A DNA stretch of 64,000 bases from a virus (lineage: Duplodnaviria; Caudoviricetes): IMG/VR virus record IMGVR_UViG_3300048631_000217; one strand, given 5' to 3'. The translations under genes were made by a program, and so were the position numbers. Shown piece after piece: positions 14,005 through 63,899 of the stretch (position 1 is its first letter; the number at the start of each line of letters is the position of its first letter). The notes beneath the pieces were generated by a model, which saw only the letters and a list, made by a program, of their open reading frames with translations, searched no databases and had not been told where the DNA came from.

Positions 14005-14090
14005 TTTCCTTTCCTATCGCTTACATGATTAATATAGGAACTCTAGGTAACTTTGTCAAGAGAAAAACGCCCCCGAAGGGACGTTTTCAG
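14005..14090 (-). promoter_or_regulatory. Terminator + early promoter + leader cassette (copy A)
   Basis: Minus strand AAAACGTCCC-TTCG-GGGGCGTTTTT, then TTGACA-17-TATATT, then CATGTAAGCGATAGGAAAGGA. Confidence 0.85.
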
Positions 14091-14092
14091 GA

Positions 14093-14647
14093 TTATTTAG
14101 TGATTTTGATGTCCCCGGACACCCAAACATCACCGGAAACCCGAGCATTCCCGTAAACCCGAGCATCACCCGAAACCCGAGCATCACCCGAAACCCGAGC
14201 ATTTCCGTAAACCCGAGCAATCCCGAAAACATGAGCCTTTCCAGAAACCCAAGCATTCTCCAAAACCCGAGCATTGCGCGAAACCAAAGCATACCCGGAA
14301 CCCCGAGCATCCCCGTAAACCCGAGCATACCCGAAAACCCGAGCATGCCCGTAAACCCGAGCCTTCCCGAAAATCTGAGCCTTTTCATAAACCCGAGCAT
14401 TCCCCAAAACCTGAGCATTCCCGTAAACCCGAGCATTGTCCGAAACCTGAGCATCCCCGTAAACCCGAGCATCCCCGTAAACCCGAGCCTTCCCGAAAAT
14501 CTGAGCATCCTCGAAAACCCGAGCATCCGGCCCAACATATGCACTATCAGCAACATGCGCCGTATCAGCGACCCAACCGCCCCCGTTGGGGTGGCGGTGG
14601 GCCGGGACCGGGCCAGTCCCAAAATCAAACATGGTTTGTTCGGTCAT
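14093..14647 (-). CDS. Hexapeptide-repeat (left-handed beta-helix-like) protein, type I, 184 aa
   Basis: MTEQTMFDFGTGPVPAHRHPNGGGWVADTA plus tandem V-x-G-x-A-x units. Confidence 0.85.
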   Translation of the reverse strand: MTEQTMFDFGTGPVPAHRHPNGGGWVADTAHVADSAYVGPDARVFEDAQIFGKARVYGDARVYGDAQVSDNARVYGNAQVLGNARVYEKAQIFGKARVYGHARVFGYARVYGDARGSGYALVSRNARVLENAWVSGKAHVFGIARVYGNARVSGDARVSGDARVYGNARVSGDVWVSGDIKITK

Positions 14648-14654
14648 CTTCATG

Positions 14655-14735
14655 TTCCTTCTATCGCTTACATGTTTAATATAGGGACTATAAGAAACTT
14701 TGTCAAGTAAAAAACGCCCCCGAAGGGACGTTTTC
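14655..14735 (-). promoter_or_regulatory. Terminator + early promoter + leader cassette (copy B)
   Basis: Same elements as copy A; -35 at 14701-14706, -10 at 14678-14683. Confidence 0.85.
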
Positions 14736-14739
14736 TGGA

Positions 14740-15222
14740 TTATTCAGTGATTTTGATGTCCCCGGACACCCAAGCATTCCCAGAAACCTGAGCATTACCG
14801 CATACCCAAACCTTTCCGAAAACCCGAGCATCCCCGAAAACCCGAGCATCCCCGAAAACCCGAGCATATCCAGAAACCCAAGCATTACCCGAAACCTGAG
14901 AATATTCGGAAACATGAGCCTTTCCGTATACCTGAGCATACTCGAAAATCCGAGCATGCCCAAATACCAGAGCATACCCGAATACCCGAGCATTCCCGTA
15001 AACCCAAGCATTCCCAGAAACCCGAGCATTCCCGAAAACCAGAGCCTTTCCGAAAACCCGAGCATTATCCGAAACCAGAGCATCTCCCCAAACCCGAGCA
15101 TCCGGGCCGACAAAAGCCGTATTCGCAACATAGGCGGTATCGGCAACCCAACCGCCCCCGTTGGGGTGGCGATGGGCCGGGACCGGCCCGGTTCCGAAAT
15201 CAAACATGGTTTGTTCGGTCAT
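14740..15222 (-). CDS. Hexapeptide-repeat protein, type I, 160 aa
   Basis: Paralogue of 14093 with 4 fewer repeats. Confidence 0.85.
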   Translation of the reverse strand: MTEQTMFDFGTGPVPAHRHPNGGGWVADTAYVANTAFVGPDARVWGDALVSDNARVFGKALVFGNARVSGNAWVYGNARVFGYALVFGHARIFEYAQVYGKAHVSEYSQVSGNAWVSGYARVFGDARVFGDARVFGKVWVCGNAQVSGNAWVSGDIKITE

Positions 15223-15229
15223 CTCAACG

Positions 15230-15313
15230 TTCCTTTCTATCGCTTACATCTTTAATATAGGGTCTATAAGGAAATTTGTCAAGAAAAAAAAACGCCCCCG
15301 AAGGGACGTTTTC
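15230..15313 (-). promoter_or_regulatory. Terminator + early promoter + leader cassette (copy C)
   Basis: -35 at 15277-15282, -10 at 15254-15259, same TTCG hairpin. Confidence 0.85.
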
Positions 15314-15317
15314 AGGA

Positions 15318-15710
15318 TTATTCAGTGATTTTGGTATCATCGCAGACCCAAGTATTCCCGAAAACCCAAGCATACCCGAAAACCTGAGCATTCCCAGAAA
15401 CCTGAGCATCATCGAATACCCAAACGTTCCCGAAAACCCGAGCATTCCCGAAAACCCGAGCCTTTCCGTAAACCCAAGCCTTTCCGAAAACCCGAGCATT
15501 ATCTGAAACCCGAGCATTTCCGAAAACCCGAGCCTTTCCGAAAACCCGAGCATTATCTGAAACCCGAGCATTACCTGAAACCTGAGCATTCGGCCCGACA
15601 TATGCACTATCAGCAACATGCGCCGTATCAGCGACCCAACCGCCCCCGTTGGGGTGGCGGTGGGCCGGGACCGGGCCAGTCCCAAAATCAAACATGGTTT
15701 GTTCGGTCAT
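15318..15710 (-). CDS. Hexapeptide-repeat protein, type I, 130 aa
   Basis: Third tandem paralogue; preceded by a leader-only remnant of the cassette (15716-15740). Confidence 0.85.
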   Translation of the reverse strand: MTEQTMFDFGTGPVPAHRHPNGGGWVADTAHVADSAYVGPNAQVSGNARVSDNARVFGKARVFGNARVSDNARVFGKAWVYGKARVFGNARVFGNVWVFDDAQVSGNAQVFGYAWVFGNTWVCDDTKITE

Positions 15711-15767
15711 CTTCGTGTTCCTTCTATCGCTTACATGTTTAGAACATAGAGGAAGACAACAAAGATT

Positions 15768-15902
15768 TCAACTCATCTTGTTAAACTTTTTCTCTTTGTC
15801 AGACTTCACCATGACGATCTCTTTGGGTTGTTTGTTTCTCTTGTAGCGTCCATACAAGACTCCCACGACGATACCTACAAGTGCGATTAAGATAATTTCC
15901 AT
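15768..15902 (-). CDS. Small single-TM protein (44 aa)
   Basis: Manual translation MEIILIALVGIVVGVLYGRYKRNKQPKE...; AGGAG SD. Confidence 0.6.
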   Translation of the reverse strand: MEIILIALVGIVVGVLYGRYKRNKQPKEIVMVKSDKEKKFNKMS

Positions 15903-15916
15903 GTCTTGTTCTCCTG

Positions 15917-21719: not shown

Positions 21720-21730
21720 AGCCTCTTTCT

Positions 21731-21760: not shown

Positions 21761-21770
21761 CGAAAGACGC

Positions 21771-22229: not shown

Positions 22230-22232
22230 TAA

Positions 22233-33855: not shown

Positions 33856-34211
33856 TGAAGATACTCCGTGTCGTATGTGATCGTGATAGGGTTGGTGGAT
33901 TGCTGGTATTCATACATAACGTTCCACACATCCATGTAGAATCGTTCACGCCACTCGTCATCAACCGACGATTTGAAATTGTCATAATCAATTCGGTCAA
34001 CGTTCTCTTTGATCTTTCGAGACACGTAGTTACGATCCAAGAACACCCGGAAAGCGTAATCGGACCCTTCGTTGAACGAAACGGACTTAGGATCGACTTC
34101 GGGAAATGCCGCTTCGATATCCCCCTCGATCCGTGCCCGCACCAGTAGCCTTTCCGGGTTATCGTAATCTTCTACGATAGACAGGAAAGAATTATTCATG
34201 AAAATCCACAT
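33819..34211 (-). CDS. Conserved hypothetical protein
   Basis: MWIF...FLSIV; LLVRAR; DYAFR; IDYDNFKSSV; own promoter at 34246-34274. Confidence 0.7.
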   Translation of the reverse strand: MWIFMNNSFLSIVEDYDNPERLLVRARIEGDIEAAFPEVDPKSVSFNEGSDYAFRVFLDRNYVSRKIKENVDRIDYDNFKSSVDDEWRERFYMDVWNVMYEYQQSTNPITITYDTEYLQWLQDHAVSKTS

Positions 34212-34323
34212 AGAACACCTATACGTTTCTGCTTCTTACATATGACATATAGGTGTTCTGTGCGGTTTTGTCAAGGTTATTTAGACATATAGTATTCTAG
34301 AAAGGCGGTCTAATTTTTCTACT

Positions 34324-40569: not shown

Positions 40570-40574
40570 TTCGA

Positions 40575-40630
40575 ATTCCTTTCCTATCGCTTACATGATT
40601 AATATAGGCGATAGGAAAGGGTTTGTCAAG
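40575..40630 (-). promoter_or_regulatory. Early promoter/leader cassette with 13-bp inverted repeat (copy E)
   Basis: TTGACA-17-TATATT; CCTTTCCTATCGC 40578-40590 / GCGATAGGAAAGG 40608-40620. Confidence 0.85.
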
Positions 40631-40638
40631 AGACTTTT

Positions 40639-41181
40639 TCAGAAATCTTCAAAGTCGATGATTCCTTTGATCAATGCCATAGCCTTTTCATACTTTTCCG
40701 AGAAACCTTCATCATCGAAAGCCTTCCGGCCTTTTTTGGATTCCCAATCCTCAAGAGTCATGGACCGGCATCCGATGTTGATCAGTTCGTCTTCAATCGT
40801 TACCGTGAAAGGGAACCCGGTGATCACGATGGGGGTCTTGGGCACGGGGCCTTGGACCAGAGCATTCGCCAAAACATGAGCCTCTCCGTAAACCCGAGCA
40901 TTCTCGTAAACACGAGCATTCTCGTAAACACGAGCATCTCCGTAAACACGAGCATTCCCGTAAACCCAAGCATACCCGAAAACATGTGCATAACCGGAAA
41001 CACGAGCATACCCGAAAACACGAGCCTGATCGGAAACCCGAGCATACCCGTAAACCCGAGCATCCGGCCCGACATAGGCGGTTTCGGCGACATACGCGGT
41101 GTCCGCGACCCACCCCCCGCCGTTCGGGTGTTGATGGGCCGGTACAGGGCCTTGGCCGTCTTCGAAGTCAAACATGGTCAT
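40639..41181 (-). CDS. Hexapeptide-repeat protein, type II (with C-terminal domain), 180 aa
   Basis: FDFEDGQGPVPAHQHPNGGGWV + repeats + KTPIVITGFPFTVTIEDELINIGC. Confidence 0.85.
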   Translation of the reverse strand: MTMFDFEDGQGPVPAHQHPNGGGWVADTAYVAETAYVGPDARVYGYARVSDQARVFGYARVSGYAHVFGYAWVYGNARVYGDARVYENARVYENARVYGEAHVLANALVQGPVPKTPIVITGFPFTVTIEDELINIGCRSMTLEDWESKKGRKAFDDEGFSEKYEKAMALIKGIIDFEDF

Positions 41182-44991: not shown

Positions 44992-45285
44992 TTACCCCAC
45001 TCGGTTGTCTATGACGTTCACTAGGTCTTCAGCATAGACGTTTTCAATAGTTTCGTCAACCAGAAATTTAGATCCGCGCGTTTTTACAAAACGCACCTTG
45101 TAGAGATCTTTGCCGTATTCGTATTCGATACGAACCTTGCCATGTTTAAGCTTCGGGCAGTTGACTTTGAATTGCAGGATGTTATCACCGGCTACCATGT
45201 CCTTAGCGCCCCATGCCCCAAGCGCCCATTTGTCAATGGTCTTGATTTGGGCAAGGATCGTCTTGGCAACGGTCATGTCGGTCAT
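44992..45285 (-). CDS. Hypothetical early protein
   Basis: Behind a leader-only cassette remnant TAAGCGATAGAAAGGA (45290-45308). Confidence 0.7.
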   Translation of the reverse strand: MTDMTVAKTILAQIKTIDKWALGAWGAKDMVAGDNILQFKVNCPKLKHGKVRIEYEYGKDLYKVRFVKTRGSKFLVDETIENVYAEDLVNVIDNRVG

Positions 45286-45310
45286 TTCTGATTCCTTTCT
45301 ATCGCTTATC

Positions 45311-45511
45311 CTACTGATAAGAAGATTTGGTCAGGTTGCCGAAAACCCGAGCATTGCCACCCTTCCGAGCATCTTCGGCGGTCAGGTTGCCGAAAACCCG
45401 AGCATTGCCACCCTTCCGAGCATCTTCGGCGGTCAGACGCTGATATTCATCATATCCGCGTCTGACCTCATCAAGATACTGTTCAAGGACTTTTTCAAAA
45501 CGTTCGGTCAT
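45311..45511 (-). pseudogene. Chimeric remnant: N-terminus of the 40222 paralogue + duplicated 51-nt unit containing a hexapeptide fragment
   Basis: MTERFEKVLEQYLDEVRRGYDEYQRLTA vs MTERLQKALEQYLEAIKRDYDEYQLLTA; LTAEDARKGGNARVFGN twice. Confidence 0.65.
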
Positions 45512-45514
45512 TTC

Positions 45515-45571
45515 TGATTCCTTTCTATCGCTTACATGATTAATATAGGCGATAGGGTTGGGTTTGTCAAG
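45515..45571 (-). promoter_or_regulatory. Early promoter/leader cassette with inverted repeat (copy F)
   Basis: -35 at 45565-45570, -10 at 45542-45547; CTATCGC/GCGATAG. Confidence 0.8.
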
Positions 45572-46220
45572 GGATTTCAACGTAACAACTGGAAGAAATC
45601 GTGTCACGGTATTGACCGGCTTCGATATAACATTCACCGAAGAAATGGCTTGCGCCGGTAATTGATGTATTCCCGGTTACTTCTACATTATCATCAATTC
45701 GTGCGTCCCCCGAAACACTAGCCTTCCCCGAAACACGAGCATTCCCCGAAACACGAGCATTCCCCGAAACACGAGCATTCCCCGAAACACGAGCATTCCC
45801 CGAAACACGAGCATTCCCGGCAACACGAGCATACTCAGAAACCTGAGCCTGACCCGAAACCTGAGAATTCCCGGAAACACGAGCCTGACCCGAAACCCGA
45901 GCCTCCCCCGAAACATGTGCATTCGTGAAAACCCGAGCCTGCCCGAAAACACGAGCATCCGGCCCGATATAGGCGGTTTCGGCGACGGTCGCGGTGTTCG
46001 CGACCCAACCGCCACCATTCGGGTGTTGATGGGCCGGGACCGGGCCTTGGCCGAAATCGTGAGTTTTCACAAAATCATACAAGTTCCTACCAATGTAACA
46101 CCTCTCCAACATTTTTTGAGTAGCGTTACCTAGATCAATTTCTTCATCGAGTGCTATGTCACCGACACGCACAGAGTTGACGATATCTTTTTCGTCAGCT
46201 TTCACAAAAATTTTCATCAT
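45567..46220 (-). CDS. Hexapeptide-repeat protein, type III (N-terminal extension), 217 aa
   Basis: HDFGQGPVPAHQHPNGGGWV + repeated ARVSGN units. Confidence 0.85.
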   Translation of the reverse strand: MMKIFVKADEKDIVNSVRVGDIALDEEIDLGNATQKMLERCYIGRNLYDFVKTHDFGQGPVPAHQHPNGGGWVANTATVAETAYIGPDARVFGQARVFTNAHVSGEARVSGQARVSGNSQVSGQAQVSEYARVAGNARVSGNARVSGNARVSGNARVSGNARVSGKASVSGDARIDDNVEVTGNTSITGASHFFGECYIEAGQYRDTISSSCYVEIP

Positions 46221-46316
46221 GTCTCCCTCACGTTGTATGAAAACTGACCCTTGCTACCCTTTCGATTCGCAGAGGGGCTAGCCATATCCTTCATATATAG
46301 AAATCTTACGTATTTG

Positions 46317-46607
46317 TCAACCGCAAAAAACCGCATCTGAGCCATTTTGTGCGGCATTTGCTGGCCAGTTTCCATGCCCGCCTGTCGCATCCCCGACCCT
46401 ATGAACCGCCTTGCCACCTACAAAAACCTTGGATGAACCTATGACGGCAGGATCTCCGCAACTTGTGGTATCCCCTACCAGAACCACCTTGCGACCTTCA
46501 ATCAAAACCGTATCCTGACCCGCCACATAAGCGGTTTGATGAAACTCACCTGTTACAGTATTCGTGTGGCCTTCGTGAAGGTCTCCGTCTCTAACTATTC
46601 CCGGCAT
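46317..46607 (-). CDS. PAAR spike-tip protein (gp5.4-like)
   Basis: VRDGDLHEGH; VLVGDTTSCG; GSSKVFVGGKAVHRVGD. Confidence 0.85.
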   Translation of the reverse strand: MPGIVRDGDLHEGHTNTVTGEFHQTAYVAGQDTVLIEGRKVVLVGDTTSCGDPAVIGSSKVFVGGKAVHRVGDATGGHGNWPANAAQNGSDAVFCG

Positions 46608-47079
46608 CTTGATCCTTTACAATCAGTCTGTCAAACACGATAGGAAAGGTGGGTAGCGAATCCGGTATGCGACCTGTATAGGCATAAGACAGACTCACAT
46701 GTGGTTTGTAATCCGGCCATGCGTCTTCCATGTCATATATATCCGTGAACGTATTGCGCACCGGCAGAATCTTTTCTGGATTCAGACGCAACACCGGAAC
46801 CTCACGTTCAACCCCCAAGATTTCGAAATCAGTCGCATGGGATACGACTTTGATAGGCGAAACCTCGTAGTTCTCCATCCGGTGATAGCTTGTCGTGAAG
46901 TAGACTGTGCAATGGAATTCGAAATCTTCGGGGGCTATCTCGCCCCCGTCATAATCGACTGCCAGATTGAAACCTTGTTCCCGACAATACTTCCGTAAGT
47001 TTTCTTGCGTCTCATCATCGGCCATCAGAGATACATACTTCCGTTTGCCTAAAATCAGAGACTTCAATTTTTGCATCAT
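46591..47079 (-). CDS. 2H phosphoesterase, T4 gp57B/Acb1-like (anti-CBASS nuclease)
   Basis: YVSL...FHCTVYF...DYKPHVSLSY...PIVFDR, the same motif layout as T4 57B (HST, DYTPHITLSY, PVVLDR). Confidence 0.75.
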   Translation of the reverse strand: MMQKLKSLILGKRKYVSLMADDETQENLRKYCREQGFNLAVDYDGGEIAPEDFEFHCTVYFTTSYHRMENYEVSPIKVVSHATDFEILGVEREVPVLRLNPEKILPVRNTFTDIYDMEDAWPDYKPHVSLSYAYTGRIPDSLPTFPIVFDRLIVKDQDAGNS

Positions 47080-47819
47080 AACCCTAACCTGTTCTTTGTT
47101 TCTATGTAAGACTTGACCAAGCCGCTTCTGACGATATCCGAAGTGTCAAACTCGACTATATCGAATTCATCCATGTTCTCTAGGATACGGATCATCTTCG
47201 GGAAGCCGCTTTCCTCTCTCTGGCGCATGTTTTCTAAATCATTCTGGGCCGTGTCTCCGCAAAAGATGACCCGGCAGTTATGTCCTATTCTGGTCAGAAT
47301 GGTATCCAGTTCATGAAAGGTCATGTTCTGGCATTCATCAACTATGACGATACTGTCTTCGAATTCTGCCCCGCGTAGGAAAGATGTGCTATGAAACTGA
47401 AACTTATGGGTCTGTTTCAGTGTGGCAAAACCGTCTTCCCTATCACAGATTTTGTTAACGTGCCCAATGGCGACGTTTTCGAATTGTTCCGTCTTTTCGC
47501 CGATCCCGCCCGGCATGAACCCCATATTCCGCGTTTGGACTGTGGAACGTATGTAGCAAATCTTTTCATAATTCCGAAGTCTTAGGACTTGGTTCAGGGC
47601 GAACCAGAACGCAAGGAATGTCTTCCCTGTTCCGGCACTACCCATCAAACAAAGTTGATACCCTTCGTCCCATGCGTCCTTAGCTGCTTTCTGTCCTTCT
47701 GTCAACGCTTTGATAGTCGGATTAACCTGATATCTCTTTGCGTTTAGTTCCCCGTTTATGTCAATCACTCCATCACGCTTCATTTGTCTGAGTTCTTTTC
47801 TGGATGGGGTTGCGGGCAT
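47076..47819 (-). CDS. phoH: PhoH-like ATPase
   Basis: GSAGTGKTFLA; MGFMPG; FLRG; IVDECQN; IFCGD..QNDL; DIVRSGLV. Confidence 0.92.
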   Translation of the reverse strand: MPATPSRKELRQMKRDGVIDINGELNAKRYQVNPTIKALTEGQKAAKDAWDEGYQLCLMGSAGTGKTFLAFWFALNQVLRLRNYEKICYIRSTVQTRNMGFMPGGIGEKTEQFENVAIGHVNKICDREDGFATLKQTHKFQFHSTSFLRGAEFEDSIVIVDECQNMTFHELDTILTRIGHNCRVIFCGDTAQNDLENMRQREESGFPKMIRILENMDEFDIVEFDTSDIVRSGLVKSYIETKNRLGL

Positions 47820-53358: not shown

Positions 53359-53359
53359 A

Positions 53360-54453: not shown

Positions 54454-54903
54454 TCAGAAGTCGGCTACACCCTGCCCCACGTCAAATACAAAAATGCCAT
54501 TTTCGATCCACATATCACAGACTCGTTTCCGATCATCCACGACAAAATCAGGCTTTCTTCCCCATTCCGCCACGATCTGATCTAGTATCTCGCGTTTGAT
54601 GATAGCGTCAGAACGGTAATCGCCTTCGGGTCGCATGTAAAGCTTCTTCCAGCCGATTACCCAATTATTTACCAACCAATTTTCGGTCACTTCTCGGGAT
54701 TGCTCGCCCCTACCGGAAGCCAACAAAACGTCATTGTTATCGACAAATGCTTGAAACATGTCGATAACGGGTTGGTTCGGAGAATCGAATGGAATACCTT
54801 TTTCGAAGGCTTTCCAGTTCTTCGGTTTGGTTTGAACGAACCCGCGCCGATGTTTGATATCCGCAAGGGTTCCGTCAATGTCGAACACGATCAATTTTTT
54901 CAT
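54454..54903 (-). CDS. Polynucleotide 3'-phosphatase (stand-alone PseT HAD domain)
   Basis: VFDIDGTLA; SGR; LYMRPEGDYRSDAIIK; VDDR. Confidence 0.85.
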   Translation of the reverse strand: MKKLIVFDIDGTLADIKHRRGFVQTKPKNWKAFEKGIPFDSPNQPVIDMFQAFVDNNDVLLASGRGEQSREVTENWLVNNWVIGWKKLYMRPEGDYRSDAIIKREILDQIVAEWGRKPDFVVDDRKRVCDMWIENGIFVFDVGQGVADF

Positions 54904-55091
54904 GTATTCTTTACCAACCAATCAATCAGCTTACCGATTAGAACAAAGATCGTGCTGAATACGATCAACCAGAATTCGAGTCCGATGAACGCGACAACGA
55001 ATTCTCCAAACTGCCCTTCCTTGGGGTCAAGTGACAAGGCGTAGAGCAACGCAAGGAAGAAGCAAACCATTGTCAGAATTTTGAACCACAT
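54900..55091 (-). CDS. Small 2-TM membrane protein
   Basis: Two hydrophobic segments. Confidence 0.55.
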   Translation of the reverse strand: MWFKILTMVCFFLALLYALSLDPKEGQFGEFVVAFIGLEFWLIVFSTIFVLIGKLIDWLVKNT

Positions 55092-55143
55092 CTTACAATC
55101 CCCTTTCTACTCCGAGATAGATATAATGCCGATCACCAAAATG

Positions 55144-55668
55144 TCAAGTGTATTTCCGTGCCACTTCTTGCACATATTCAGGCGAGGCGTTCCCCAAATC
55201 CGAACCTGTCGGGCAGGTATGGTAGGTATGTCCATAATTCCGCATCTTGTGACCTGAAGTATCTCCATCACATACAGCCACAACCGGGCGATATCCACGA
55301 ACCATTCTCAGCCAAGAATATGTGGTCGGATTGACTTGATATGACAGAATGGCTATGGCAGAATATCCGATACTCGTCAATCGACAGGCATCAAAAACAC
55401 CTTCCGTAACGAACAAGGTTTCAGAAAACTTCCAGCTTTCCATCCCCCAAACCCCTACCCTGTCCCTGCCGATTCGAGTGAAATACCGCCCCTCACGCGG
55501 ATCGTTCTTGCGCGTCTTGTCTGCAAGGGGGCGGTATCTCTGGTATCCGACAAGTTGTCCTGACAGGTTCCATATCGGGAAGGTTACAGAAACCTCATCA
55601 TCGTTCGTCCAGTAGCTATGGACGTTTGGTGACATATGCCTGTCGGATAGGTGTTGTGCGAGATTCAT
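55144..55668 (-). CDS. Toprim-domain primase-like protein
   Basis: FPIWNLSGQLVGYQ; LFVTEGVFDA; VCDGD. Confidence 0.7.
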   Translation of the reverse strand: MNLAQHLSDRHMSPNVHSYWTNDDEVSVTFPIWNLSGQLVGYQRYRPLADKTRKNDPREGRYFTRIGRDRVGVWGMESWKFSETLFVTEGVFDACRLTSIGYSAIAILSYQVNPTTYSWLRMVRGYRPVVAVCDGDTSGHKMRNYGHTYHTCPTGSDLGNASPEYVQEVARKYT

Positions 55669-56003
55669 CCGGTTTTTTGTAAATCCTGTCTGTTGATTGC
55701 CGCAAAACCGTATCCGCGACATATCATCGGACCTCTAGGGTTCAACGGACCTTCGCCGTCTACTAAGATAGACAATTCGCGACCACTCATTACCAGCTTG
55801 CGAGTTGCGCCATGTTCCTTAACCGTCTTCTCAAATTCGGTAAATTCTGGGTCAGTCCACCCACCTTTCGGTTGGGCGTTTGATCCGTTTATAGCTGGCC
55901 ACATACCTCTAATGATGTGGGTATAACCAATCAAAATTCCCAAAACTTTTTCGTATTCCGGTCGATTGTCGTCCGTCAGTTCAACTACTGTCATCATATC
56001 CAT
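55665..56003 (-). CDS. Hypothetical protein
   Basis: ORF. Confidence 0.45.
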   Translation of the reverse strand: MDMMTVVELTDDNRPEYEKVLGILIGYTHIIRGMWPAINGSNAQPKGGWTDPEFTEFEKTVKEHGATRKLVMSGRELSILVDGEGPLNPRGPMICRGYGFAAINRQDLQKTG

Positions 56004-56167
56004 GTTCCGGTGTCATAAGACTTCACCGCCATATTATGTATAATTCGAGTCTCGTTCCCCGAATATACACCACCTTACATATGCGGTCAAGCCTTATCAC
56101 GAACCTTTGTCAAGTAACGTCTACCTAGCCGTTACCGTATAAACCCGGTATGTGACCAAAAGGTTCC

Positions 56168-56563
56168 CTACTTCCGACCTTTTCGGGCCTTCATCATGGA
56201 ATCCGCGACCATATAGGCGTTTTTGGACAAGGTAAGAAGTTTTTTATGCGTGAGTGCTTCGTAACGCCCCATAAGAAAGGCGTTCATGGCGGATACGGCG
56301 AAGGTATCTCGCAAATCCTGCCCATCCCCCTTGCTCGAACCGGCTTCCATAGGCTCATCGAAATCGTCGTCTACCGCTTCCATTTCGGCCACGGTCTGTT
56401 CGGTTGTATCAGGTACGGATTTGATCCGTTCATATGCGTCTAGTGCATTAGCATGATCAAGGGCATCAGAAAGGCTAGGATGTGCGGCATAAAGGTTGCC
56501 GTTCTCACCCAACACCTGATAACTAACAGAACATTTGCGAACAACTTTAAACTTCATGTTCAT
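56168..56563 (-). CDS. Hypothetical protein
   Basis: C-term LRDTFAVSAM...AYMVADSMMKAR, a common phage motif. Confidence 0.6.
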   Translation of the reverse strand: MNMKFKVVRKCSVSYQVLGENGNLYAAHPSLSDALDHANALDAYERIKSVPDTTEQTVAEMEAVDDDFDEPMEAGSSKGDGQDLRDTFAVSAMNAFLMGRYEALTHKKLLTLSKNAYMVADSMMKARKGRK

Positions 56564-56780
56564 TCTACCTCTAGTGGTTTCTGGCAATACAAGCTGTTCT
56601 GATCTACTGTGATACAGTAGCCGTTATGTAGTCGGCTTTCCTCTTCTTTCAAGAATTGCCAGACCAGAAACACAGCTTCCATTGCAAGAAACAGTATCAA
56701 AAAAGTTACTTTCATTCTTCTACGTTGCATATCTTGTTGACCCTACCGAAACGTGTCCGGTAGGGTCAAATCCTCTCTTA

Positions 56781-58169
56781 CTACCTTTTGATAGTGGGGT
56801 CAACCTGAATCTCTTGGGCCGCTCGCATGGTCATCAGGGACATGAAGCTGTTGATCGTGCTGAGTGCCCCGTTGTCTTGGCTACTACCGCCAATGACCGT
56901 TGCCGGTACATTGATTTGTGCAGCGGCTTCCGCCCATACCTGTTGCGATTTCAACCAAGCGTCAAGTTTGGCTTGTAGCGCCCCATCAGCCTCTAGAATG
57001 GCCTGTTTGGCATAGGCTTCGGCATCGGCAGACACTTGGACGGATTCGGCTTCGATCCGGGTGCGTTCAAGGTCAATCTCGGCAGTTTCCTTGAAGATCT
57101 TAGCCTCTTCCTTCAACCGATCTGCCTTGATCAAGGCAAGCTTCTTTTCGGTTTCGGCATCGGTCGTTTTCTGAATCTGTTCTTCCCGCGCCTGAGCCTG
57201 ACGTTTTGCGATATTGGTTTCACCGGCCTGAATGGCAAGGAGTCGCTGTTCTTCCTGCTCTAGACGTTGTTCGCGGGCGATGATACGGCGGCTTGCAGCA
57301 TCTTTTCGGTCCTTGATCTGTTCTTCGAAACGGTCATCAGGATCAAGGTTTTCGAAAATGGCGCTGGACGCGATGATACCGTAATTCATGTAAGAATGAG
57401 GTTCGCGGATCTCTTTGCCAGTCTTGTCAAACACTTTCTGCATGATGATCGTCCCAACGTCACTATCGCCATATGTCGCCGTGTCTTGAGACTTGTCGCT
57501 AGTAGAGTTACCTGACGTTCCAACACCGGATTCCGTTTCAACATATACCTGACGAACGCGGGCGCGGCCCTTCAAGATAGCTTCCTCAAACTCAGTCTTG
57601 AATTCGCCTCTTTGTCCCCCTGCATAATAACCTTCCATGGTGAACATGTTGGCCACGGAGTCCAACGATGCGGTTACGGCGGGGCGAAGCGTCGTCGTGA
57701 CCAGCCGGTCAACACTGCGGAAATCCCTAGCCATTTTCAGGAATTGTTCGGAGTCTTGGGGAATACCGAACCGGGTGTTTTGCGTCACCTGACCCGTCCA
57801 GTTGTCGGCTAGTCTTACCATGTAAGGTGTGCCGATAGCTGTCCCGTCCGCATCTGTGGCATCCGTATGAGATACCGTGATATAATGCGGCCAAGCGGTT
57901 GAACGCCCCCACCCTTCAAAGAACCATCCGGTTTTGCAGTAGGACGATTCACTACCGAAAATGGTTCGAATGTGTCGGCAGTAACCGGAGTCGTTGTATT
58001 CGAATGCGCCGCCGACGAAGGTTGCCGCACTTACGGAGACCGCTAGTGCCGATACCCAATTTCGAAAGGTATTCGGTATTTCCATGGGTTTAGCAATCTT
58101 CCACACGGCAACAGCCGCAAGCAACAGCATCATAGATGCGATAATACTGATCATTTTGTCCCTCTTCAA
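56781..58169 (-). CDS. SPFH/Band-7-like membrane protein
   Basis: N-terminal TMs, core domain, long Ala/Glu coiled coil (ADAEAY). Confidence 0.7.
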   Translation of the reverse strand: MKRDKMISIIASMMLLLAAVAVWKIAKPMEIPNTFRNWVSALAVSVSAATFVGGAFEYNDSGYCRHIRTIFGSESSYCKTGWFFEGWGRSTAWPHYITVSHTDATDADGTAIGTPYMVRLADNWTGQVTQNTRFGIPQDSEQFLKMARDFRSVDRLVTTTLRPAVTASLDSVANMFTMEGYYAGGQRGEFKTEFEEAILKGRARVRQVYVETESGVGTSGNSTSDKSQDTATYGDSDVGTIIMQKVFDKTGKEIREPHSYMNYGIIASSAIFENLDPDDRFEEQIKDRKDAASRRIIAREQRLEQEEQRLLAIQAGETNIAKRQAQAREEQIQKTTDAETEKKLALIKADRLKEEAKIFKETAEIDLERTRIEAESVQVSADAEAYAKQAILEADGALQAKLDAWLKSQQVWAEAAAQINVPATVIGGSSQDNGALSTINSFMSLMTMRAAQEIQVDPTIKR

Positions 58170-58687
58170 TATGCAGTCTGTTTCACAATCTTACCGTACA
58201 TGTTGATATACGTCACATAATCGAACCCCTCATTCCCTTCCGGCAAGACGTAAGACTTGCGCATGTTGTCCATGATGTTGTCGGGAATCGTCTTACCCGA
58301 CCGAGCCGACAGACGAGACCGCCATTCGGCAACATCCTCATCAGTCTCGGGGGGGCAGATAGCCCAAGCGTGTTTGGTATATTCCGAAGAAAACCGCGAC
58401 AGGATCGACCGCCGCTTCTTCTTAGACAAATTCGTCTGGTCCCAAATGATCGGGTTCTTGTTGAAAATGTGGTGCGTCAAAAGACTGTCCATAGTCTTCT
58501 GAGCATCGTCAATCAAGCTACCGAACATTTCATCATAACTTTTCTTATAAAAATCTGCCCAAGTCTGGATGAAGTGATCGGTCGAATACACGAAAACATC
58601 GTTATCCGCGTTCTTCTCCAAGGCGGCAGAAACCGCGTAACTCTTGCCGGTCCCCGGCAGACCACACATCACAACAAGATTGGGCAT
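58166..58687 (-). CDS. Polynucleotide kinase-like P-loop protein (AAA_33)
   Basis: VMCGLPGTGKS; STD; IIWDQTNL...R. Confidence 0.8.
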   Translation of the reverse strand: MPNLVVMCGLPGTGKSYAVSAALEKNADNDVFVYSTDHFIQTWADFYKKSYDEMFGSLIDDAQKTMDSLLTHHIFNKNPIIWDQTNLSKKKRRSILSRFSSEYTKHAWAICPPETDEDVAEWRSRLSARSGKTIPDNIMDNMRKSYVLPEGNEGFDYVTYINMYGKIVKQTAY

Positions 58688-58690
58688 GGC

Positions 58691-59296
58691 TCAAAACTCC
58701 ATCTTTAACGTCTCAAGTTCATCCAAACAGATAAACTTGGTTTTGTCAATAACTTTTTGGGTAGAATGGTGCCAGTGCCCGAAAATCCATACATCGGGTT
58801 GATGGATTTTCCACATGGCGTCAAGGGCCTGTCTGGTCCGACTAGGGAATTCCCGACGATAGAAGGGGAACATGTTGATCGCCGCCGTTTCCGGGCATTC
58901 ATGAGACGCTACGTAACGCGGCTTGATCGTCTCGTAGCTGTTGATGATGGATTCGAAATGAGCAATCGAAATCTCTTCATCCGGCCACCAACTTACTCCA
59001 TGGATTCGATAAGCCTTGTCAATCGACAATCCACCCCCGATGAACATCATGTCAAGGTCTTTATCATAGTGACCATCGGGGATATAGTTTTCCATGGTCT
59101 TGATGACGGACGGGTTATCGTGATTGCCTCGGATGAACCTATGGGTATGGCCGATACCGGATAGACGATCCTCGTTCCGGCCCATGAAACCGACCCCAAG
59201 ATCTCCGATCTGGATCGTTTCGGTGGTATTGGCAACGATGTCAAGGTATCTGTCGATCTTGCCATGCACATCACCGATGAAGGTCACTTCAATCAT
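58691..59296 (-). CDS. Metallophosphoesterase
   Basis: GDVHG; GDLG; GNHD; SHECP; FGHWH. Confidence 0.85.
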   Translation of the reverse strand: MIEVTFIGDVHGKIDRYLDIVANTTETIQIGDLGVGFMGRNEDRLSGIGHTHRFIRGNHDNPSVIKTMENYIPDGHYDKDLDMMFIGGGLSIDKAYRIHGVSWWPDEEISIAHFESIINSYETIKPRYVASHECPETAAINMFPFYRREFPSRTRQALDAMWKIHQPDVWIFGHWHHSTQKVIDKTKFICLDELETLKMEF

Positions 59297-60455
59297 GGGG
59301 TATCCCAATTATTTCACAAAACTTTTCGTAGCTTTTGTTGTTGCTGCAAGACGCCTTGGCGAGATCCATCAACATACCGCTGATACTCTTGCCGTCCATA
59401 CAAGCAAAGATATAACGTGCGGCATGGGGGTCGTCAAGCTTGGGGATAACCTCGGTCGCCAAAACCTTACGATCCCCCTGTGCCTGATCTATAGCCCATT
59501 TCGACAAATTGACCAGTTCGCTAAATCTACTCTGGAAACATTTCCAGAATTTCACCTCGTAATCACTAACTCGCGTCAGATCTTGATTATCAAGAAAGGG
59601 TAGTAGATCGTCTAGTTCATTGTTCAACATAAGGGACAGAATGTGACGATCCGTGCGGATTCGATCCTTGACCTTGTGGATACGCACATACCAGTCATTC
59701 TTGATCTTCAGCTTATGTCCGTCCAGAAAGTTGATGATATACCCTTCACAACCCGTCTCTTTCGACTTTTCTTCGACAAAAGACTTGATGTCTTTGGGGG
59801 CGGTATAACTCGGGCATATCTTGAAAGGGCATTCTACTTCGGATATATCTAGATACATTCCGGTCAAATTATCACGGATAGCAAGTAGAACAAGTTCTTC
59901 TTCGGTGTAATCGACCACGATCTTGTTATTTGGGCCAATCCATTCAAAAAGCGGAGTATACCCCAATTTGTATTGATGATACACCCATTCCTGATATTCA
60001 GGGTTTCGTGACGCTAGCCACGTTTCGGCTTGCATGGAAACTTCCGTGATCCCCATCTTGGTCGCAAGGCGTAGATGACTGTTTACTATAACAGGTCGGA
60101 TCATGCTCCCATCCATCTTGTCTTGTATAAAGATGTTCTGGAAATTGATTGCGTTGATTTGGGTTTCTTCTTTCTCGTTAAGGTTGAAGAATTTGTGAAA
60201 TGGCCGGGAAATGAGTTTACCCGAACCATCGAAAATCAGCCCACGACATTCCCGTAGATACACCCATTTCGGGTGGTAGACGCCTGCCGCATCCACAATC
60301 ATTGAATCGTGGGTTGCGGAAAAGGTCTCGGGAGTCTGCACAACATAGTTGATGACGCTGTAGCCGTCCCTTCTTGCGATCACGAATTCGTCTAGTCCCT
60401 TTATGGCCGATAGGACCGGCCCGTAGTCTACCAGAAACGGAAACTTGTAATTCAT
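59289..60455 (-). CDS. rnlA: RNA ligase 1 (T4 Rnl1-like)
   Basis: RECRGLIF; RPFHKFFN; KMDGS; TPLFE; NKIVV.Y; EGYI; KIKNDWY..H. Confidence 0.92.
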   Translation of the reverse strand: MNYKFPFLVDYGPVLSAIKGLDEFVIARRDGYSVINYVVQTPETFSATHDSMIVDAAGVYHPKWVYLRECRGLIFDGSGKLISRPFHKFFNLNEKEETQINAINFQNIFIQDKMDGSMIRPVIVNSHLRLATKMGITEVSMQAETWLASRNPEYQEWVYHQYKLGYTPLFEWIGPNNKIVVDYTEEELVLLAIRDNLTGMYLDISEVECPFKICPSYTAPKDIKSFVEEKSKETGCEGYIINFLDGHKLKIKNDWYVRIHKVKDRIRTDRHILSLMLNNELDDLLPFLDNQDLTRVSDYEVKFWKCFQSRFSELVNLSKWAIDQAQGDRKVLATEVIPKLDDPHAARYIFACMDGKSISGMLMDLAKASCSNNKSYEKFCEIIGIPHD

Positions 60456-60751
60456 TTTTCGAACCTCACACTGACGGGACTATATGTCGTGATCGACATG
60501 AAACGGTCTTCTGCCAAGACGATGAATAGCCCGGCTTCGTCGTCTATGTCAACCACAAATCGCCTATCCACGACAGAAACAGATACCTTCGTGCTGCCAC
60601 AAGAATAGACGAACCCTTTGGGGGCGTCATCGAACCCGAAAGACATTGTTACTGAATTGTTGCCGTGGCTGATACTGTTGGGGTCGGAATCCCAAAAACA
60701 TGTCCGGTATTCCAACCCCGTATCAACCACCTCTAGCGCATAGATCATCAT
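60452..60751 (-). CDS. Hypothetical protein
   Basis: ORF with 4-nt overlaps on both sides. Confidence 0.55.
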   Translation of the reverse strand: MMIYALEVVDTGLEYRTCFWDSDPNSISHGNNSVTMSFGFDDAPKGFVYSCGSTKVSVSVVDRRFVVDIDDEAGLFIVLAEDRFMSITTYSPVSVRFEK

Positions 60752-61179
60752 TTGAAATCTAGCAACCTGCCCATGTTGATGTCAACGTCACTCTTCTTCA
60801 GAGTGTACAGGAGATAGCTTTGTTCAAACTTGTAGAACCTTGTCAAGAGGTGACAATACGTTGCCACGTAGTTAGGTCCGTGGCCGTCACACGGTTCGAA
60901 CGTTTCAAGACCGTTCAAGGAATGGGCGAGTTCATGGATCAGGATTTTTTCGTTCAGCCCCCAATGCGCCAGTTGAATTCGGTAGCGAGAACCCGTTGAA
61001 ACCCTTTTGTATCGTTCATTGAGAACCACGTCAGGCGGATTCAACAAACCAAGTTCGTTCCAAATATATCCGACGATGATACGCAAGGAATGTGTATCAG
61101 TTTCATTGGATGGCATTTTCGGGAAGACGAAAGCGCGTTCCCAATCATAGACATGCTGCTTCTGATAGTCCCGCATCAC
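60748..61179 (-). CDS. HExxH zinc-metallopeptidase-like protein
   Basis: RDYQK..VYDWE; ILIHELAH; GHGP. Confidence 0.7.
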   Translation of the reverse strand: MMRDYQKQHVYDWERAFVFPKMPSNETDTHSLRIIVGYIWNELGLLNPPDVVLNERYKRVSTGSRYRIQLAHWGLNEKILIHELAHSLNGLETFEPCDGHGPNYVATYCHLLTRFYKFEQSYLLYTLKKSDVDINMGRLLDFK

Positions 61180-61436
61180 TTCGCCCCATTCATGTAGTCG
61201 CTGAGAAGGTAAGTGCCGATCCCTTTCAGGACGATTGTGTTAGAATAATGAGTCTTGCCGTCTTCTGTGTCAATCACCAGTTCCACATTTTCAGGAAAAT
61301 GTTTGCTGGCCGGGGTCAGACGGTAATCGACTACCATACCTTCCATGGTCGGATACATAGCCCCGAAATTCATCATCATCTTGGTTCCGATGGGGTATTC
61401 GGAAATCGTTTCGCGGTTGATACGATGTTTGATCAT
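61176..61436 (-). CDS. Hypothetical early protein
   Basis: Behind cassette G. Confidence 0.65.
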   Translation of the reverse strand: MIKHRINRETISEYPIGTKMMMNFGAMYPTMEGMVVDYRLTPASKHFPENVELVIDTEDGKTHYSNTIVLKGIGTYLLSDYMNGAK

Positions 61437-61441
61437 TTCGG

Positions 61442-61497
61442 ATTCCTTTCCTATCGCTTACATGTTGAATATAGGCGATAGGAACATTTTTGTCAAG
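61442..61497 (-). promoter_or_regulatory. Early promoter/leader cassette with 10-bp inverted repeat (copy G)
   Basis: -35 at 61491-61496, -10 at 61468-61473; TTCCTATCGC/GCGATAGGAA. Confidence 0.85.
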
Positions 61498-61504
61498 TGT
61501 TCTT

Positions 61505-62140
61505 TTAAAGGTCACGAAATTCGATATGACCTTTGATCAATGCCATAGCCTTTTCATACTTTTCCGAGAAACCTTCATCATCGAAAACCTTACGACCTTT
61601 ATCAGACTCCCAATCTTTAAGAGTCATGGACTTGCACCCGATGTTGATCAACTCATCCTCAATCGTTACCGTGAAAGGGAACCCGTTGATCACGATGGGG
61701 GTCTTGGTCACGGGGCCTTGGACCCGAGCATTCCCGTAAACCCAAGCATTCCCGTAAACCCGAGCATACCCGTAAACACGAGCATCTCCGTAAACCCGAG
61801 CATGCCCGTAAACCAGAGCATACCCGTAAACCAGAGCATCTCCGTAAACACGAGCATCTCCGTAAACACGAGCATACCCGTAAACCAGAGCATCTCCGTA
61901 AACACGAGCATTCCCGTAAACCCGAGCATACCCGTAAACCTGAGCATCCCCGGAAACACGAGCATTCCCGTAAACCCGAGCATACCCGTAAACCTGAGCA
62001 TCCCCGGAAACACGAGCATCCGGCCCGACATAGGCGGTTTCGGCGACATACGCGGTGTCCGCGACCCAACCGCCTCCATTGGGATGCTTATGGGCCGGGA
62101 CGGGGCCTTTGCCGTCTTCAAAATCAAACATAGTCGTCAT
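61505..62140 (-). CDS. Hexapeptide-repeat protein, type II, 211 aa
   Basis: Paralogue of 40639 with 5 more repeats. Confidence 0.85.
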   Translation of the reverse strand: MTTMFDFEDGKGPVPAHKHPNGGGWVADTAYVAETAYVGPDARVSGDAQVYGYARVYGNARVSGDAQVYGYARVYGNARVYGDALVYGYARVYGDARVYGDALVYGYALVYGHARVYGDARVYGYARVYGNAWVYGNARVQGPVTKTPIVINGFPFTVTIEDELINIGCKSMTLKDWESDKGRKVFDDEGFSEKYEKAMALIKGHIEFRDL

Positions 62141-62151
62141 TTTGGTTTCCT

Positions 62152-62901
62152 TTACGAAAGAAGTTTCGTGCTACCGTCATCGCCGTTAATCGGGCTGTTG
62201 AAGTTAACTTTCTTCGCCGATTCGGCTCCCGCATTGTTTGCCCCGGTCACGCCGCCCGAACGACTATAGTTGTATTCCTGCCGCAGACGGATATTGAAGT
62301 GATCCGCAAAGTATTCGTCAATCTTGCCCATCTTCAGCGGCACTAGCGCGGTGCCAGTTTTGGTAACATTGGTTTTGGTATCTGCGGCCAGTTTCGTCAG
62401 ACGGCTACAAATCACATTGACGAAACCGTTGCGGAAACTTGCCCGAACCTTACGCCCATGGAAATTCGCCAGCGCCGCAGCACCTTTCGAGGAATTCTTG
62501 AACGATTCGTATTCGTTCAGATAGACCCGGTTCAACATGTCCCAGAAGAATTCAAACAATTCAAGATCGTTCTCGTAGCCAATGAGATTGATCGAGAACG
62601 ATTGGATGCGGTTATACCGGCGCGGACGCATGACCCAAATCTTGAGGGAAAGGAATTCGGCAAGGGCCATGGTGATACCGAGAAGTTCCGGCTTGTTATT
62701 GCGGCCCGTTTCGATGACCTTATGAAGAATCTTCTCGTCACCAAGTTCGATATCTTCAATCGACAATGCCCATTCTTCCATCAAGGCACCTGCCTTGCTC
62801 ATGGCAACTTGGGCTTCGGCGAGGTTGCTGTTGTTGGCAGACAGGGCCATCAGCTTCGCGATCTTGACTTTTACGGCTTGGACTTCGCTTTTCATAATCA
62901 A
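62152..62901 (-). CDS. DUF2786-domain protein
   Basis: KIAKLMALS...EAQVAMSKAGALM; SFRNGF. Confidence 0.75.
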   Translation of the reverse strand: MIMKSEVQAVKVKIAKLMALSANNSNLAEAQVAMSKAGALMEEWALSIEDIELGDEKILHKVIETGRNNKPELLGITMALAEFLSLKIWVMRPRRYNRIQSFSINLIGYENDLELFEFFWDMLNRVYLNEYESFKNSSKGAAALANFHGRKVRASFRNGFVNVICSRLTKLAADTKTNVTKTGTALVPLKMGKIDEYFADHFNIRLRQEYNYSRSGGVTGANNAGAESAKKVNFNSPINGDDGSTKLLS

Positions 62902-62907
62902 CCCTTT

Positions 62908-62961
62908 CGGTTTCCTATCGCTTACATGATGAATATAGGCGATAGGAAAGGTTTTGTCAAG
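62908..62961 (-). promoter_or_regulatory. Early promoter/leader cassette with 11-bp inverted repeat (copy H)
   Basis: -35 at 62955-62960, -10 at 62932-62937; TTTCCTATCGC/GCGATAGGAAA. Confidence 0.85.
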
Positions 62962-62967
62962 AAGTTT

Positions 62968-63621
62968 TTAGAGATTATCCCGAACGTCGATGTGTCCTTT
63001 GATCAGGAACATGATCTTTTTGTAATTATTAGAATAACCTTCATCATCGAAAGCCTTACGACCATTCTCGGACTCCCAATCTTTAAGAGTCATGGATTGG
63101 CACCCGATGTTGATCAGTTTGTCTTCAATCGTGACCGTGAAAGGGAACCCGGTGATCACGATAGGGGTCTTGGTCACGGGGCCTTGGACCAGAGCCTTCC
63201 CAGAAACCCAAGCCTTATCGGAAACCTGAGCATTCTCGTAAACACGAGCATCTCCGTAAACACGAGCATCTCCGTAAACACGAGCATTCCCGTAAACCCA
63301 AGCATACCCGTAAACCTGAGCATACCCGTAAACCAGAGCATACCCGAAAACACGAGCATTCCCAGAAACCCGAGCATTCTCGGAAACAAAAGTATATCCG
63401 TAAACACGAGCCTTATCGGAAACCTGAGCATACCCGTAAACCCAAGCATACCCGTAAACCCGAGCATTCCCGAAAACACGAGCCTTATCGAAAACACGAG
63501 CATCCGGCCCGACATAGGCGGTTTCGGCGACATACGCGGTGTCCGCGACCCACCCCCCGCCGTTCGGGTGTTGATGGGCCGGTACAGGGCCTTGGCCGTC
63601 TTCGAAGTCAAAAGTGGTCAT
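62968..63621 (-). CDS. Hexapeptide-repeat protein, type II, 217 aa
   Basis: Paralogue of 40639 with 6 more repeats. Confidence 0.85.
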   Translation of the reverse strand: MTTFDFEDGQGPVPAHQHPNGGGWVADTAYVAETAYVGPDARVFDKARVFGNARVYGYAWVYGYAQVSDKARVYGYTFVSENARVSGNARVFGYALVYGYAQVYGYAWVYGNARVYGDARVYGDARVYENAQVSDKAWVSGKALVQGPVTKTPIVITGFPFTVTIEDKLINIGCQSMTLKDWESENGRKAFDDEGYSNNYKKIMFLIKGHIDVRDNL

Positions 63622-63632
63622 TGCGGTTTCCT

Positions 63633-63797
63633 TTACGATTTAAGCAAACGGGCATAAATCCCGTAGTTAACTCGGACCTCATATCCGTTTTCCAAAGATC
63701 TCATCTGACCTTCGGTAAACCGATCATTCATTTGTTCCTCTGACATTTCAATTTTGTCAAGTTTGTCGTCATACCGAACAAGAATTTTGTAGGTCAT
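63633..63797 (-). CDS. Hypothetical early protein (54 aa)
   Basis: Manual translation MTYKILVRYDDKLDKIEMSEEQMNDRF...LLKS. Confidence 0.55.
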   Translation of the reverse strand: MTYKILVRYDDKLDKIEMSEEQMNDRFTEGQMRSLENGYEVRVNYGIYARLLKS

Positions 63798-63813
63798 CAG
63801 TAACCCTCATTTT

Positions 63814-63899
63814 GGTTTCCTATCGCTTACATGATGAATATAGGGTCTTCGGAACACTTTGTCAAGAAAAAAAAACGCCCCCGAGGGGGCGCTTCTTTT
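63814..63899 (-). promoter_or_regulatory. Terminator + early promoter + leader cassette (copy I)
   Basis: -35 at 63860-63865, -10 at 63837-63842; CGCCCCC hairpin with T-tract on the minus strand. Confidence 0.8.

Follow-up and report, generated by a model that had tools for sequence, protein, structure and literature searches.

Putative PeSL-type early-promoter cassettes associated with beta-solenoid paralogues in a T4-like phage genome

Promoter-early stem-loops (PeSLs) of T4-type phages are composite elements that combine a stem-loop terminator, a sigma-70 early promoter, a Shine-Dalgarno (SD) sequence and an ATG (Comeau et al. 2014, PMC4122927; Arbiol et al. 2010, PMC2839356). PeSL crossovers and mini-circle junctions were mapped between the -10 box and the ATG (PMC2839356). 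These elements are compared here with a repeated promoter-leader element that lies next to paralogous beta-solenoid genes in a 64,000-nt stretch of viral DNA (hereafter the window; IMG/VR record IMGVR_UViG_3300048631_000217, Caudoviricetes). An earlier note, made from the sequence alone, had presented this arrangement as a dispersed cassette system in which every hexapeptide-repeat gene is welded to a promoter that drives a variable cargo gene. The elements fit the published PeSL class (PMC2839356, PMC4122927) and are thus regarded as an extension of a known mechanism, not as a new cassette system.

The favoured reading, to which a probability of about 0.6 is given, is that PeSL-type early-promoter cassettes lie in a hyperplastic region, that a promoter-plus-solenoid unit was amplified, dispersed and homogenised by homologous recombination, and that small early genes entered at the leader. 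In other words, this would be known PeSL biology with two additions, a paralogous gene amplified together with the cassette and an inverted repeat as alternative insulator.

The likeness to PeSLs lies in: (i) a T4-like phage genome, recognised in profile searches by gp6-like and gp25 baseplate proteins, T4 gp13, an Rnl1-type RNA ligase, Acb1, PhoH, PAAR and NAMPT; (ii) a composite of near-consensus sigma-70 early promoter (TTGACA-17-TATATT, i.e., -35 and -10 boxes with a 17-nt spacer), SD and start codon at the 3' end of the element, preceded in 4/8 copies by a stem-loop terminator, the leader ending in GGAAAGGAA or AGGAAACC with the ATG 6-12 nt further on; (iii) many co-oriented copies among small genes of unknown function; (iv) recombination scars between -10 box and ATG. 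The differences are that: (i) in half of the window's copies, the upstream terminator gives way to an inverted repeat across the -10 box, which pairs with the leader and SD; (ii) the repeat unit is often extended by a whole paralogous gene of 0.4-0.65 kb, giving longer perfect homology than the PeSL itself; (iii) the initial transcribed sequence of 13-16 nt is invariant. For the indels and replacements between close relatives that also mark PeSLs, the comparison was made on partial contigs only: a short contig (L027) differs 5' of a unit like that at 62968, a relative of ~95% identity is unchanged at 45.5 kb, and a TARA Oceans scaffold is without solenoid units around its DUF2786 gene. The window itself is probably an early, hyperplastic stretch of a T4-like myovirus genome.

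Integron cassette arrays are likewise promoter-proximal series of unrelated small genes split by a repeated element. In contrast to them, the repeat of the window includes a promoter of its own as well as a gene for a protein, and homologous recombination would be the means of exchange. No integrase or attC-like sites were identified, an integrase having no match among 37 open reading frames (ORFs) in general PHROG and Pfam scans, which were not a systematic recombinase scan.

The promoter-leader element and its two forms

The promoter TTGACA-N17-TATATT occurs eight times in the window, always on the minus strand, vs. 0.02 copies expected. Nine exact copies of the leader, ATGTAAGCGATAG, are found, all on the minus strand as well; when up to two mismatches are allowed, 16 matches are obtained vs. 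1.16 expected. Seven solenoid paralogues were called as ORFs, all of them on the minus strand (Table 1). The distance from solenoid stop codon to -35 box is 33 nt (14093 and 14740), 35 nt (15318), 9 nt (40639), 8 nt (61505) and 7 nt (62968), and in the 45567 copy the two overlap, the stop codon TGA forming part of TTGACA. The seven minus-strand paralogues of the earlier note, each with the element within about 40 nt, are thus confirmed (0-35 nt). So is an eighth full promoter copy that it had placed near 63814 (63865-63820), which follows the gene for NAMPT, i.e., a non-solenoid protein. This context of the right end was seen via a second assembly, 100% identical to window 54782-64000. Outside the window, the same genome was covered over 2.2 kb rightward and over ~6.8 kb leftward, the left extension coming from a Logan contig that is 100% identical to window 1-12328.

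Two leader-only remnants had also been proposed, at 15716 and 45290. Both leaders exist (an exact leader at 15724-15736 and a 31-nt copy at 45278-45308), but the first one is not a leader alone: a weaker promoter, TTGAAA-17-TATGTT, precedes it, and the first array gene follows. The window also contains strong promoters that belong to other types.

Two forms of the cassette are observed, each in 4/8 copies. In the terminator form (14059, 14706, 15282, 63865), a GC-rich hairpin and a T run abut the -35 box and are followed by promoter, SD and ATG, i.e., the stem-loop is located just upstream of the promoter as in PeSLs. In the inverted-repeat form (40629, 45570, 61496, 62960), there is no terminator or upstream hairpin. 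There, the sequence between the -35 and -10 boxes is the reverse complement of the leader; the arms measure 13 (40629), 7 (45570), 10 (61496) and 10-11 bp (62960), and the inverted repeat spans the -10 box. By folding, each of the eight copies has either the terminator or the inverted repeat, never both. The predicted fold of the read-through RNA is a hairpin over the leader and part of the SD (-29, -15, -18 and -23 kcal/mol; z from -7.1 to -3.4), the SD of 45570 and 61496 being occluded only in part. When folding begins at the predicted start of the promoter itself, as was done for 40629 and 61496, the leader is unstructured. At 34274, a diverged member of the promoter family combines arms unrelated in sequence with the geometry of the four terminator-less cassettes (-32.6 kcal/mol, z -7.2).

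The simplest reading is that terminator and inverted repeat would be two ways to insulate each early gene from upstream transcription. In T4, RBS-occluding hairpins (RBS, ribosome-binding site) restrict the translation of genes e, soc, 49 and I-TevI to one transcript class. The likeness is that one arm of the hairpin is located ahead of the site where the gene's own transcription begins, so that the hairpin is expected only in a longer, read-through transcript, and that it covers the translation initiation region. T4 favours late transcripts in this way, whereas the hairpins of the window would favour transcripts from the early promoter.

Two observations concern the leaders themselves. In all nine leaders, the invariant sequence begins with ATG TAA, a start followed by a stop (e.g., 40596-40591, minus strand), ~5-7 nt past the -10 box, where the transcript itself may begin. 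The relative of ~95% identity has GTG TAA there and the TARA relative GTG TAG. In addition, TCGTAAAGGAAACC, which had been noted ahead of the solenoid genes 61505 and 62968, indeed occurs exactly twice, at these two places. It was rejected as a leader dedicated to solenoid genes: two unrelated genes (36516 and 29052) use AAAGGAAACC as their RBS as well, and much of the similarity is thus RBS consensus.

Table 1. Solenoid genes and promoter-leader features of the window
Feature	Coordinates	Strand	Details
Solenoid paralogue 1	14093..14653	-	186 aa; third gene of tandem array; PF18836 99.5 bits; phrog_7964/5070
Solenoid paralogue 2	14740..15222	-	160 aa; tandem array; ORF and PF18836
Solenoid paralogue 3	15318..15710	-	130 aa; first array gene; 117-nt perfect tract in common with paralogue 1
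Solenoid paralogue 4	40639..41181	-	180 aa; C-terminal 'GC..W' domain; 116-nt perfect N-terminal tract in common with 62968 copy
Solenoid paralogue 5	45567..46220	-	217 aa; different N-terminal extension; without C-terminal domain; stop TGA inside -35 hexamer
Solenoid paralogue 6	61505..62140	-	211 aa; C-terminal domain
Solenoid paralogue 7	62968..63621	-	217 aa; C-terminal domain; structure model made
PeSL-type cassette	13999..14088	-	Terminator hairpin 14063-14088, TTGACA-17-TATATT 14059-14031, leader, SD; drives 105-aa gene 13681-13998
PeSL-type cassette	14654..14735	-	Terminator, promoter, leader; between array genes 2 and 3
PeSL-type cassette	15223..15311	-	Terminator, promoter, leader; between array genes 1 and 2
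Weaker promoter TTGAAA-17-TATGTT and exact leader	15711..15769	-	Ahead of first array gene
Diverged promoter-family member (TTGACAAA..CCTATATG, TCATATGTAAG)	34195..34274	-	Unrelated 15-bp arms; spacer/-10 pairs with start-codon region of 130-aa gene
Promoter and leader, no terminator, 13-bp inverted repeat spacer/leader-SD	40570..40629	-	Drives 115-aa DUF7717 gene 40222-40569; -29 kcal/mol, z -7.1
Second copy of leader/SD/ATG region, 31 nt exact	45278..45308	-	Ahead of 97-aa gene 44992-45285; partner copy 45502-45532
Overlapping direct repeat of solenoid-like hexads in scrap ORF	45329..45436	-	57-nt tracts, 51 nt apart, 100% identical
Promoter and leader, inverted-repeat type, 7-bp arms	45512..45570	-	Drives 66-aa scrap ORF 45311-45511
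Promoter and leader, inverted-repeat type, 10-bp arms	61437..61496	-	Drives 86-aa gene 61176-61436
Promoter and leader, inverted-repeat type	62902..62960	-	Drives 249-aa DUF2786/DUF7168 gene 62152-62901
PeSL-type cassette after NAMPT	63798..63899	-	Terminator 63868-63899, promoter, leader; drives 54-aa gene 63633-63797

The solenoid genes and their link to the promoter

The co-duplicated homology runs from ~17 nt ahead of the solenoid ATG to the leader SD, over 0.5-0.73 kb with 82-85% identity: 61447-62157 vs. 62911-63638 (82% over 733 nt), 40557-41063 vs. 61424-61929 (84%) and 40580-41055 vs. 62911-63387 (85%). The array units are mutually 79-84% identical. Solenoid gene and promoter were thus clearly duplicated together in the window, and the proposal that the repeat unit is a whole gene plus a promoter is supported.

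Nevertheless, the link between promoter and solenoid gene is not obligatory. The statement that every such gene is welded to the promoter is true for 7/7 genes of the window but fails for an eighth paralogue of the same genome (L033 15595-15832, ~6.6 kb left of the window start, on the window's plus strand). This gene has the same C-terminal domain and is followed by a convergent terminator, without promoter or leader. It lies beside baseplate and neck genes (a gp13-like gene is adjacent), is convergent with them and ends at a shared hairpin terminator. On the promoter side, no solenoid gene is located upstream of the copy at 63865 (after NAMPT) or of the weaker one at 15769 (after a 44-aa ORF). 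Moreover, the 85% identity of 40482-40637 with 45424-45577 takes in the promoter and continues for ~90 nt into the gene downstream, whereas the 3' ends of the two solenoid genes are unrelated there; the promoter can thus also travel with the downstream gene. The TARA Oceans scaffold (3.5 kb) contains orthologues of NAMPT (66% amino-acid identity) and DUF2786 (51%), with TTGACG-17-TATATT directly ahead of DUF2786 and no solenoid repeats anywhere on it, which again argues that the promoter goes with the downstream gene. The supposed specificity of the promoter for the solenoid gene is therefore abandoned: the promoter would be an ordinary early promoter of the downstream gene, the solenoid units having been added in this lineage or lost in the TARA lineage.

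Tandem arrays are also found in unrelated viral contigs, in the order promoter-solenoid-promoter-solenoid-promoter, where both promoter and leader recur: three near-identical TTGACA...TATAGT cassettes are present in L006, and in L001 a single cassette separates two solenoid genes. A 176-kb phage contig contains ~8 solenoid paralogues, in tandem pairs and dispersed. The amplification in tandem of a promoter-plus-solenoid unit is thus a recurrent theme, and in such an array each solenoid gene necessarily precedes the next promoter.

As for the proteins, the repeats are hexads of the type A-x-V-x-G-x. The Hexapep profile PF00132 remains below its cut-off (13-20 bits vs. 27), and an identity as hexapeptide acyltransferase was rejected. 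The YdcK beta-solenoid repeat PF18836 is above its curated cut-off of 30 bits in the seven proteins of the window (42-99 bits), and PHROG 7964 and 5070, both of unknown function, match them strongly. The bactofilin profile PF04519 (cut-off 27.9) is marginal in two copies (29.0 and 29.8 bits) and below cut-off in the others. The seven proteins have a common N-terminal motif, FDF-x-DG-x-GPVPAH-x-HPNGGGWVADTA, then a variable run of hexads and variable C-termini. Many viral homologues share the same three-part architecture (N-terminal FDFxDGxGPVPAHxHPNGGGW, repeats and C-terminal 'GC..W' domain). The PF18836-type family is large (>4,695 proteins matched at E <= 1e-10) and its Atlas clusters are 83-100% viral. 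Judging from these profiles, the solenoid genes belong to a virus-typical YdcK beta-solenoid family. They differ from other YdcK beta-solenoid proteins by the presence here of at least eight copies, both tandem and dispersed. In the AlphaFold2 model of the 62968 protein (mean predicted local distance difference test score 71), only the N-terminal cap and the C-terminal alpha/beta domain are confident and the repeats are low. Comparison of this model with the PDB by Foldseek gave no match at E <= 0.001, and a literature search on YdcK or solenoid proteins in phages returned nothing relevant.

Exchange between copies and competing explanations

The solenoid paralogues exchange sequence and are mosaic, as had been suggested by the earlier note. 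Between the 62968 and 40639 copies, identity reaches 97.5% over the N-terminal 122 nt but falls to 74% over the last 115 nt, a segment in which 40639 groups with 61505 at 82.5%. Two units 22 kb apart have a perfect tract of 116 nt (41172-41057 vs. the 62968 unit) and two array units one of 117 nt (14651-14535 vs. the 15318 unit), in units otherwise 80-85% identical. Further perfect tracts of 61 and 57 nt are observed between other solenoid pairs, and the promoter-leader region gives just 20-34 nt. Mosaic segments and perfect tracts together indicate gene conversion among the solenoid copies.

A second trace is the 31-nt leader duplication (45278-45308 / 45502-45532), which brackets the 66-aa scrap ORF. 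The latter consists of the 5' end of a paralogue of the DUF7717 gene, joined to solenoid-like hexads present in two overlapping copies. Exactly this 31-nt scar would be expected if integration had occurred by a crossover between -10 box and ATG. The 54-aa gene after NAMPT is flanked by AGGAAACC(A/G)nAATGA repeats, which are weak evidence since AAAGGAAACC also serves unrelated genes (see above).

A third trace comes from a related contig. In L027 (a 730-bp ENA contig), the solenoid gene matches the 62968 unit at 99-100% identity over its last ~170 nt and on through the promoter, the middle has its best match in 61505 (97%), and the contig ends inside the leader. Its 5' end differs from the 62968 unit by the N-terminal extension, the upstream hairpin and the flank, and its repeat number is different. 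A rapid turnover is contradicted by contigs of two other samples (ERZ18276846, ERR10948314), which match 44.4-45.9 kb at 95-96.5% identity and have an unchanged layout: the order solenoid gene, promoter, scrap ORF, leader copy, 97-aa gene is kept at ~95% identity. The idea of a dedicated system for cargo shuffling thus gains from the scrap ORF within the leader duplication and from the L027 junction, and loses from the identical layout at 45.5 kb.

In the PeSL-type reading, the repeated element would be the early-promoter cassette of the phage (near-consensus sigma-70 promoter, conserved initial transcribed sequence and SD), and host RNA polymerase would read these promoters straight after infection. 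Insulation would be obtained either by a terminator hairpin directly ahead of the -35 box, the classic PeSL form (four copies), or by an inverted repeat pairing the spacer with the leader and part of the SD in read-through RNA only (four copies). The basic unit would be promoter plus solenoid gene, as in the array at 14-15.7 kb. Such units would have been amplified and dispersed by homologous recombination, and small early genes would have come in between leader and solenoid gene via leader/RBS crossovers, as in the PeSL mini-circle model. The outcome would be a solenoid gene left last in each short operon and abutting the next promoter. This order of events is tentative, and excision or amplification may be ongoing.

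Several points weigh against this reading: (i) the 13-16 nt leader is identical in nine copies while the flanks are ~80% identical, which implies selection or conversion and is not explained by the model; (ii) a relic of tandem ancestry would not strictly demand an adjacency as tight as the 7/7 observed within the window; (iii) at 40.6 and 45.5 kb the solenoid gene closes long or independent operons, which are not obvious former arrays; (iv) early timing, transcription start and insulation are predictions from the sequence; (v) the census covers only the window and the two flanks given above.

If it is true, PeSL-type shuffling is not confined to the enterobacterial and Vibrio T4-like phages from which it was described, and has two added features here, i.e., a protein-coding paralogue that moves along with the cassette and offers homology far longer than that of the cassette itself, and a spacer-to-leader inverted repeat that acts as insulator in place of the terminator. 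A concrete genomic context would also be obtained for the very large and almost exclusively viral PF18836 family: early expression, many copies and active gene conversion.

The first alternative, that of the earlier note, is that the 0.5-0.7 kb solenoid-plus-promoter block is itself the recombination scaffold, selected since long co-oriented homology drives cargo capture, excision and amplification without recombinase. The longest perfect tracts between dispersed units are indeed located in solenoid coding sequence and not in the promoter-leader region, the mosaic identities suggest repeated exchange, L027 joins the 3' end and promoter of the 62968 unit to another flank, and the cargo genes between units are mutually unrelated. 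This explanation is nevertheless doubtful: the eighth paralogue has no promoter, the promoter exists without solenoid gene (63865 and the TARA relative), the relative of ~95% identity has the same layout at the 45.5-kb unit, and an overall unit identity of 80-85% is a poor substrate beyond short perfect tracts. Moreover, selection for evolvability is not needed for a paralogue family under conversion. Its fullest version appears unlikely. In that version, the N-terminal coding tract, of which up to 116 nt are perfect between units 22 kb apart, would be homogenised by conversion together with the invariant leader, and both would serve as portable homology arms of a recombinase-free capture scaffold for the high-rate gain, loss and amplification of early anti-host genes, and a terminator or RBS-pairing hairpin would confine each captured gene to its own early promoter.

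A functional coupling is quite improbable. The solenoid gene would be kept terminal in early operons for the sake of expression, its repeat-rich 3' region and the hairpin stabilising or insulating transcripts, or as partner or adaptor of the upstream gene product. Its constant position as last gene ahead of the next promoter agrees with this, as do the exclusion between terminator and inverted repeat in 8/8 copies and the inverted repeat of same geometry and unrelated sequence at 34274. On the contrary, the array solenoid genes stand alone without any partner, the upstream genes are unrelated to each other, and the eighth paralogue is located among structural genes. Finally, a chance neighbourhood of ordinary paralogues and ordinary early promoters is very improbable, for although phage early regions are rich in sigma-70 promoters and strong promoters of other types occur in the window, eight copies are found vs. 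0.02 expected, seven of them directly after the seven solenoid genes, and the unit-length homology takes in the promoter.

Detection of the units and neighbouring genes

Megablast with both regions matched no relative among INPHARED phages. The exact-pattern scan for -10 box plus leader gave 0 matches in IMG/VR and 0 in the JGI metagenome collection, and a baseplate protein used as query found no relatives in IMG/VR. Public gene calls miss the solenoid genes, both in L031 (2524-3255 and 4150-4676) and throughout the window: every frame is open across the repeats, and what is annotated is therefore an antisense or split ORF. Five of the seven proteins were looked up in a 15-billion-protein collection and none was present (0/5), since callers annotate the wrong strand there. 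Short-read contigs stop inside the repeats or the leader (L027 and L033). The practical consequence is that gene callers overlook the solenoid genes and that short-read assemblies break at them.

The early-region neighbours of the 45567 solenoid copy are a PhoH-like ATPase (47076-47819), the anti-CBASS phosphodiesterase Acb1 (46591-47079) and a PAAR-motif protein (46317-46607); the three genes are on the minus strand. PAAR, Acb1 and two genes of the hexapeptide/beta-solenoid type form a similar neighbourhood on a 244-kb JGI phage contig (L028). At 46292-46320 (minus strand), TTGACAAATACGTAAGATTTCTATATATG overlaps the stop codon of the PAAR gene; it is a further diverged member of the promoter family and would give the 45567 copy its own promoter. 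The units at 61-64 kb are surrounded by auxiliary genes (flanks: window 59289-60455 and L031 1-2283), i.e., a NUDIX hydrolase and NAMPT (NAD salvage) upstream, and a T4 Rnl1-type RNA ligase, a metallophosphatase-like protein and a P-loop kinase-like protein downstream.

Two copies of a different promoter element, TTGACA-17-TATAAT, are located at 12265-12804 (plus strand). They are 81% identical over 259 nt, with conserved downstream sequence, and are oriented against the local genes. The Logan assembly of the same genome ends at window position 12328, exactly within this promoter pair.

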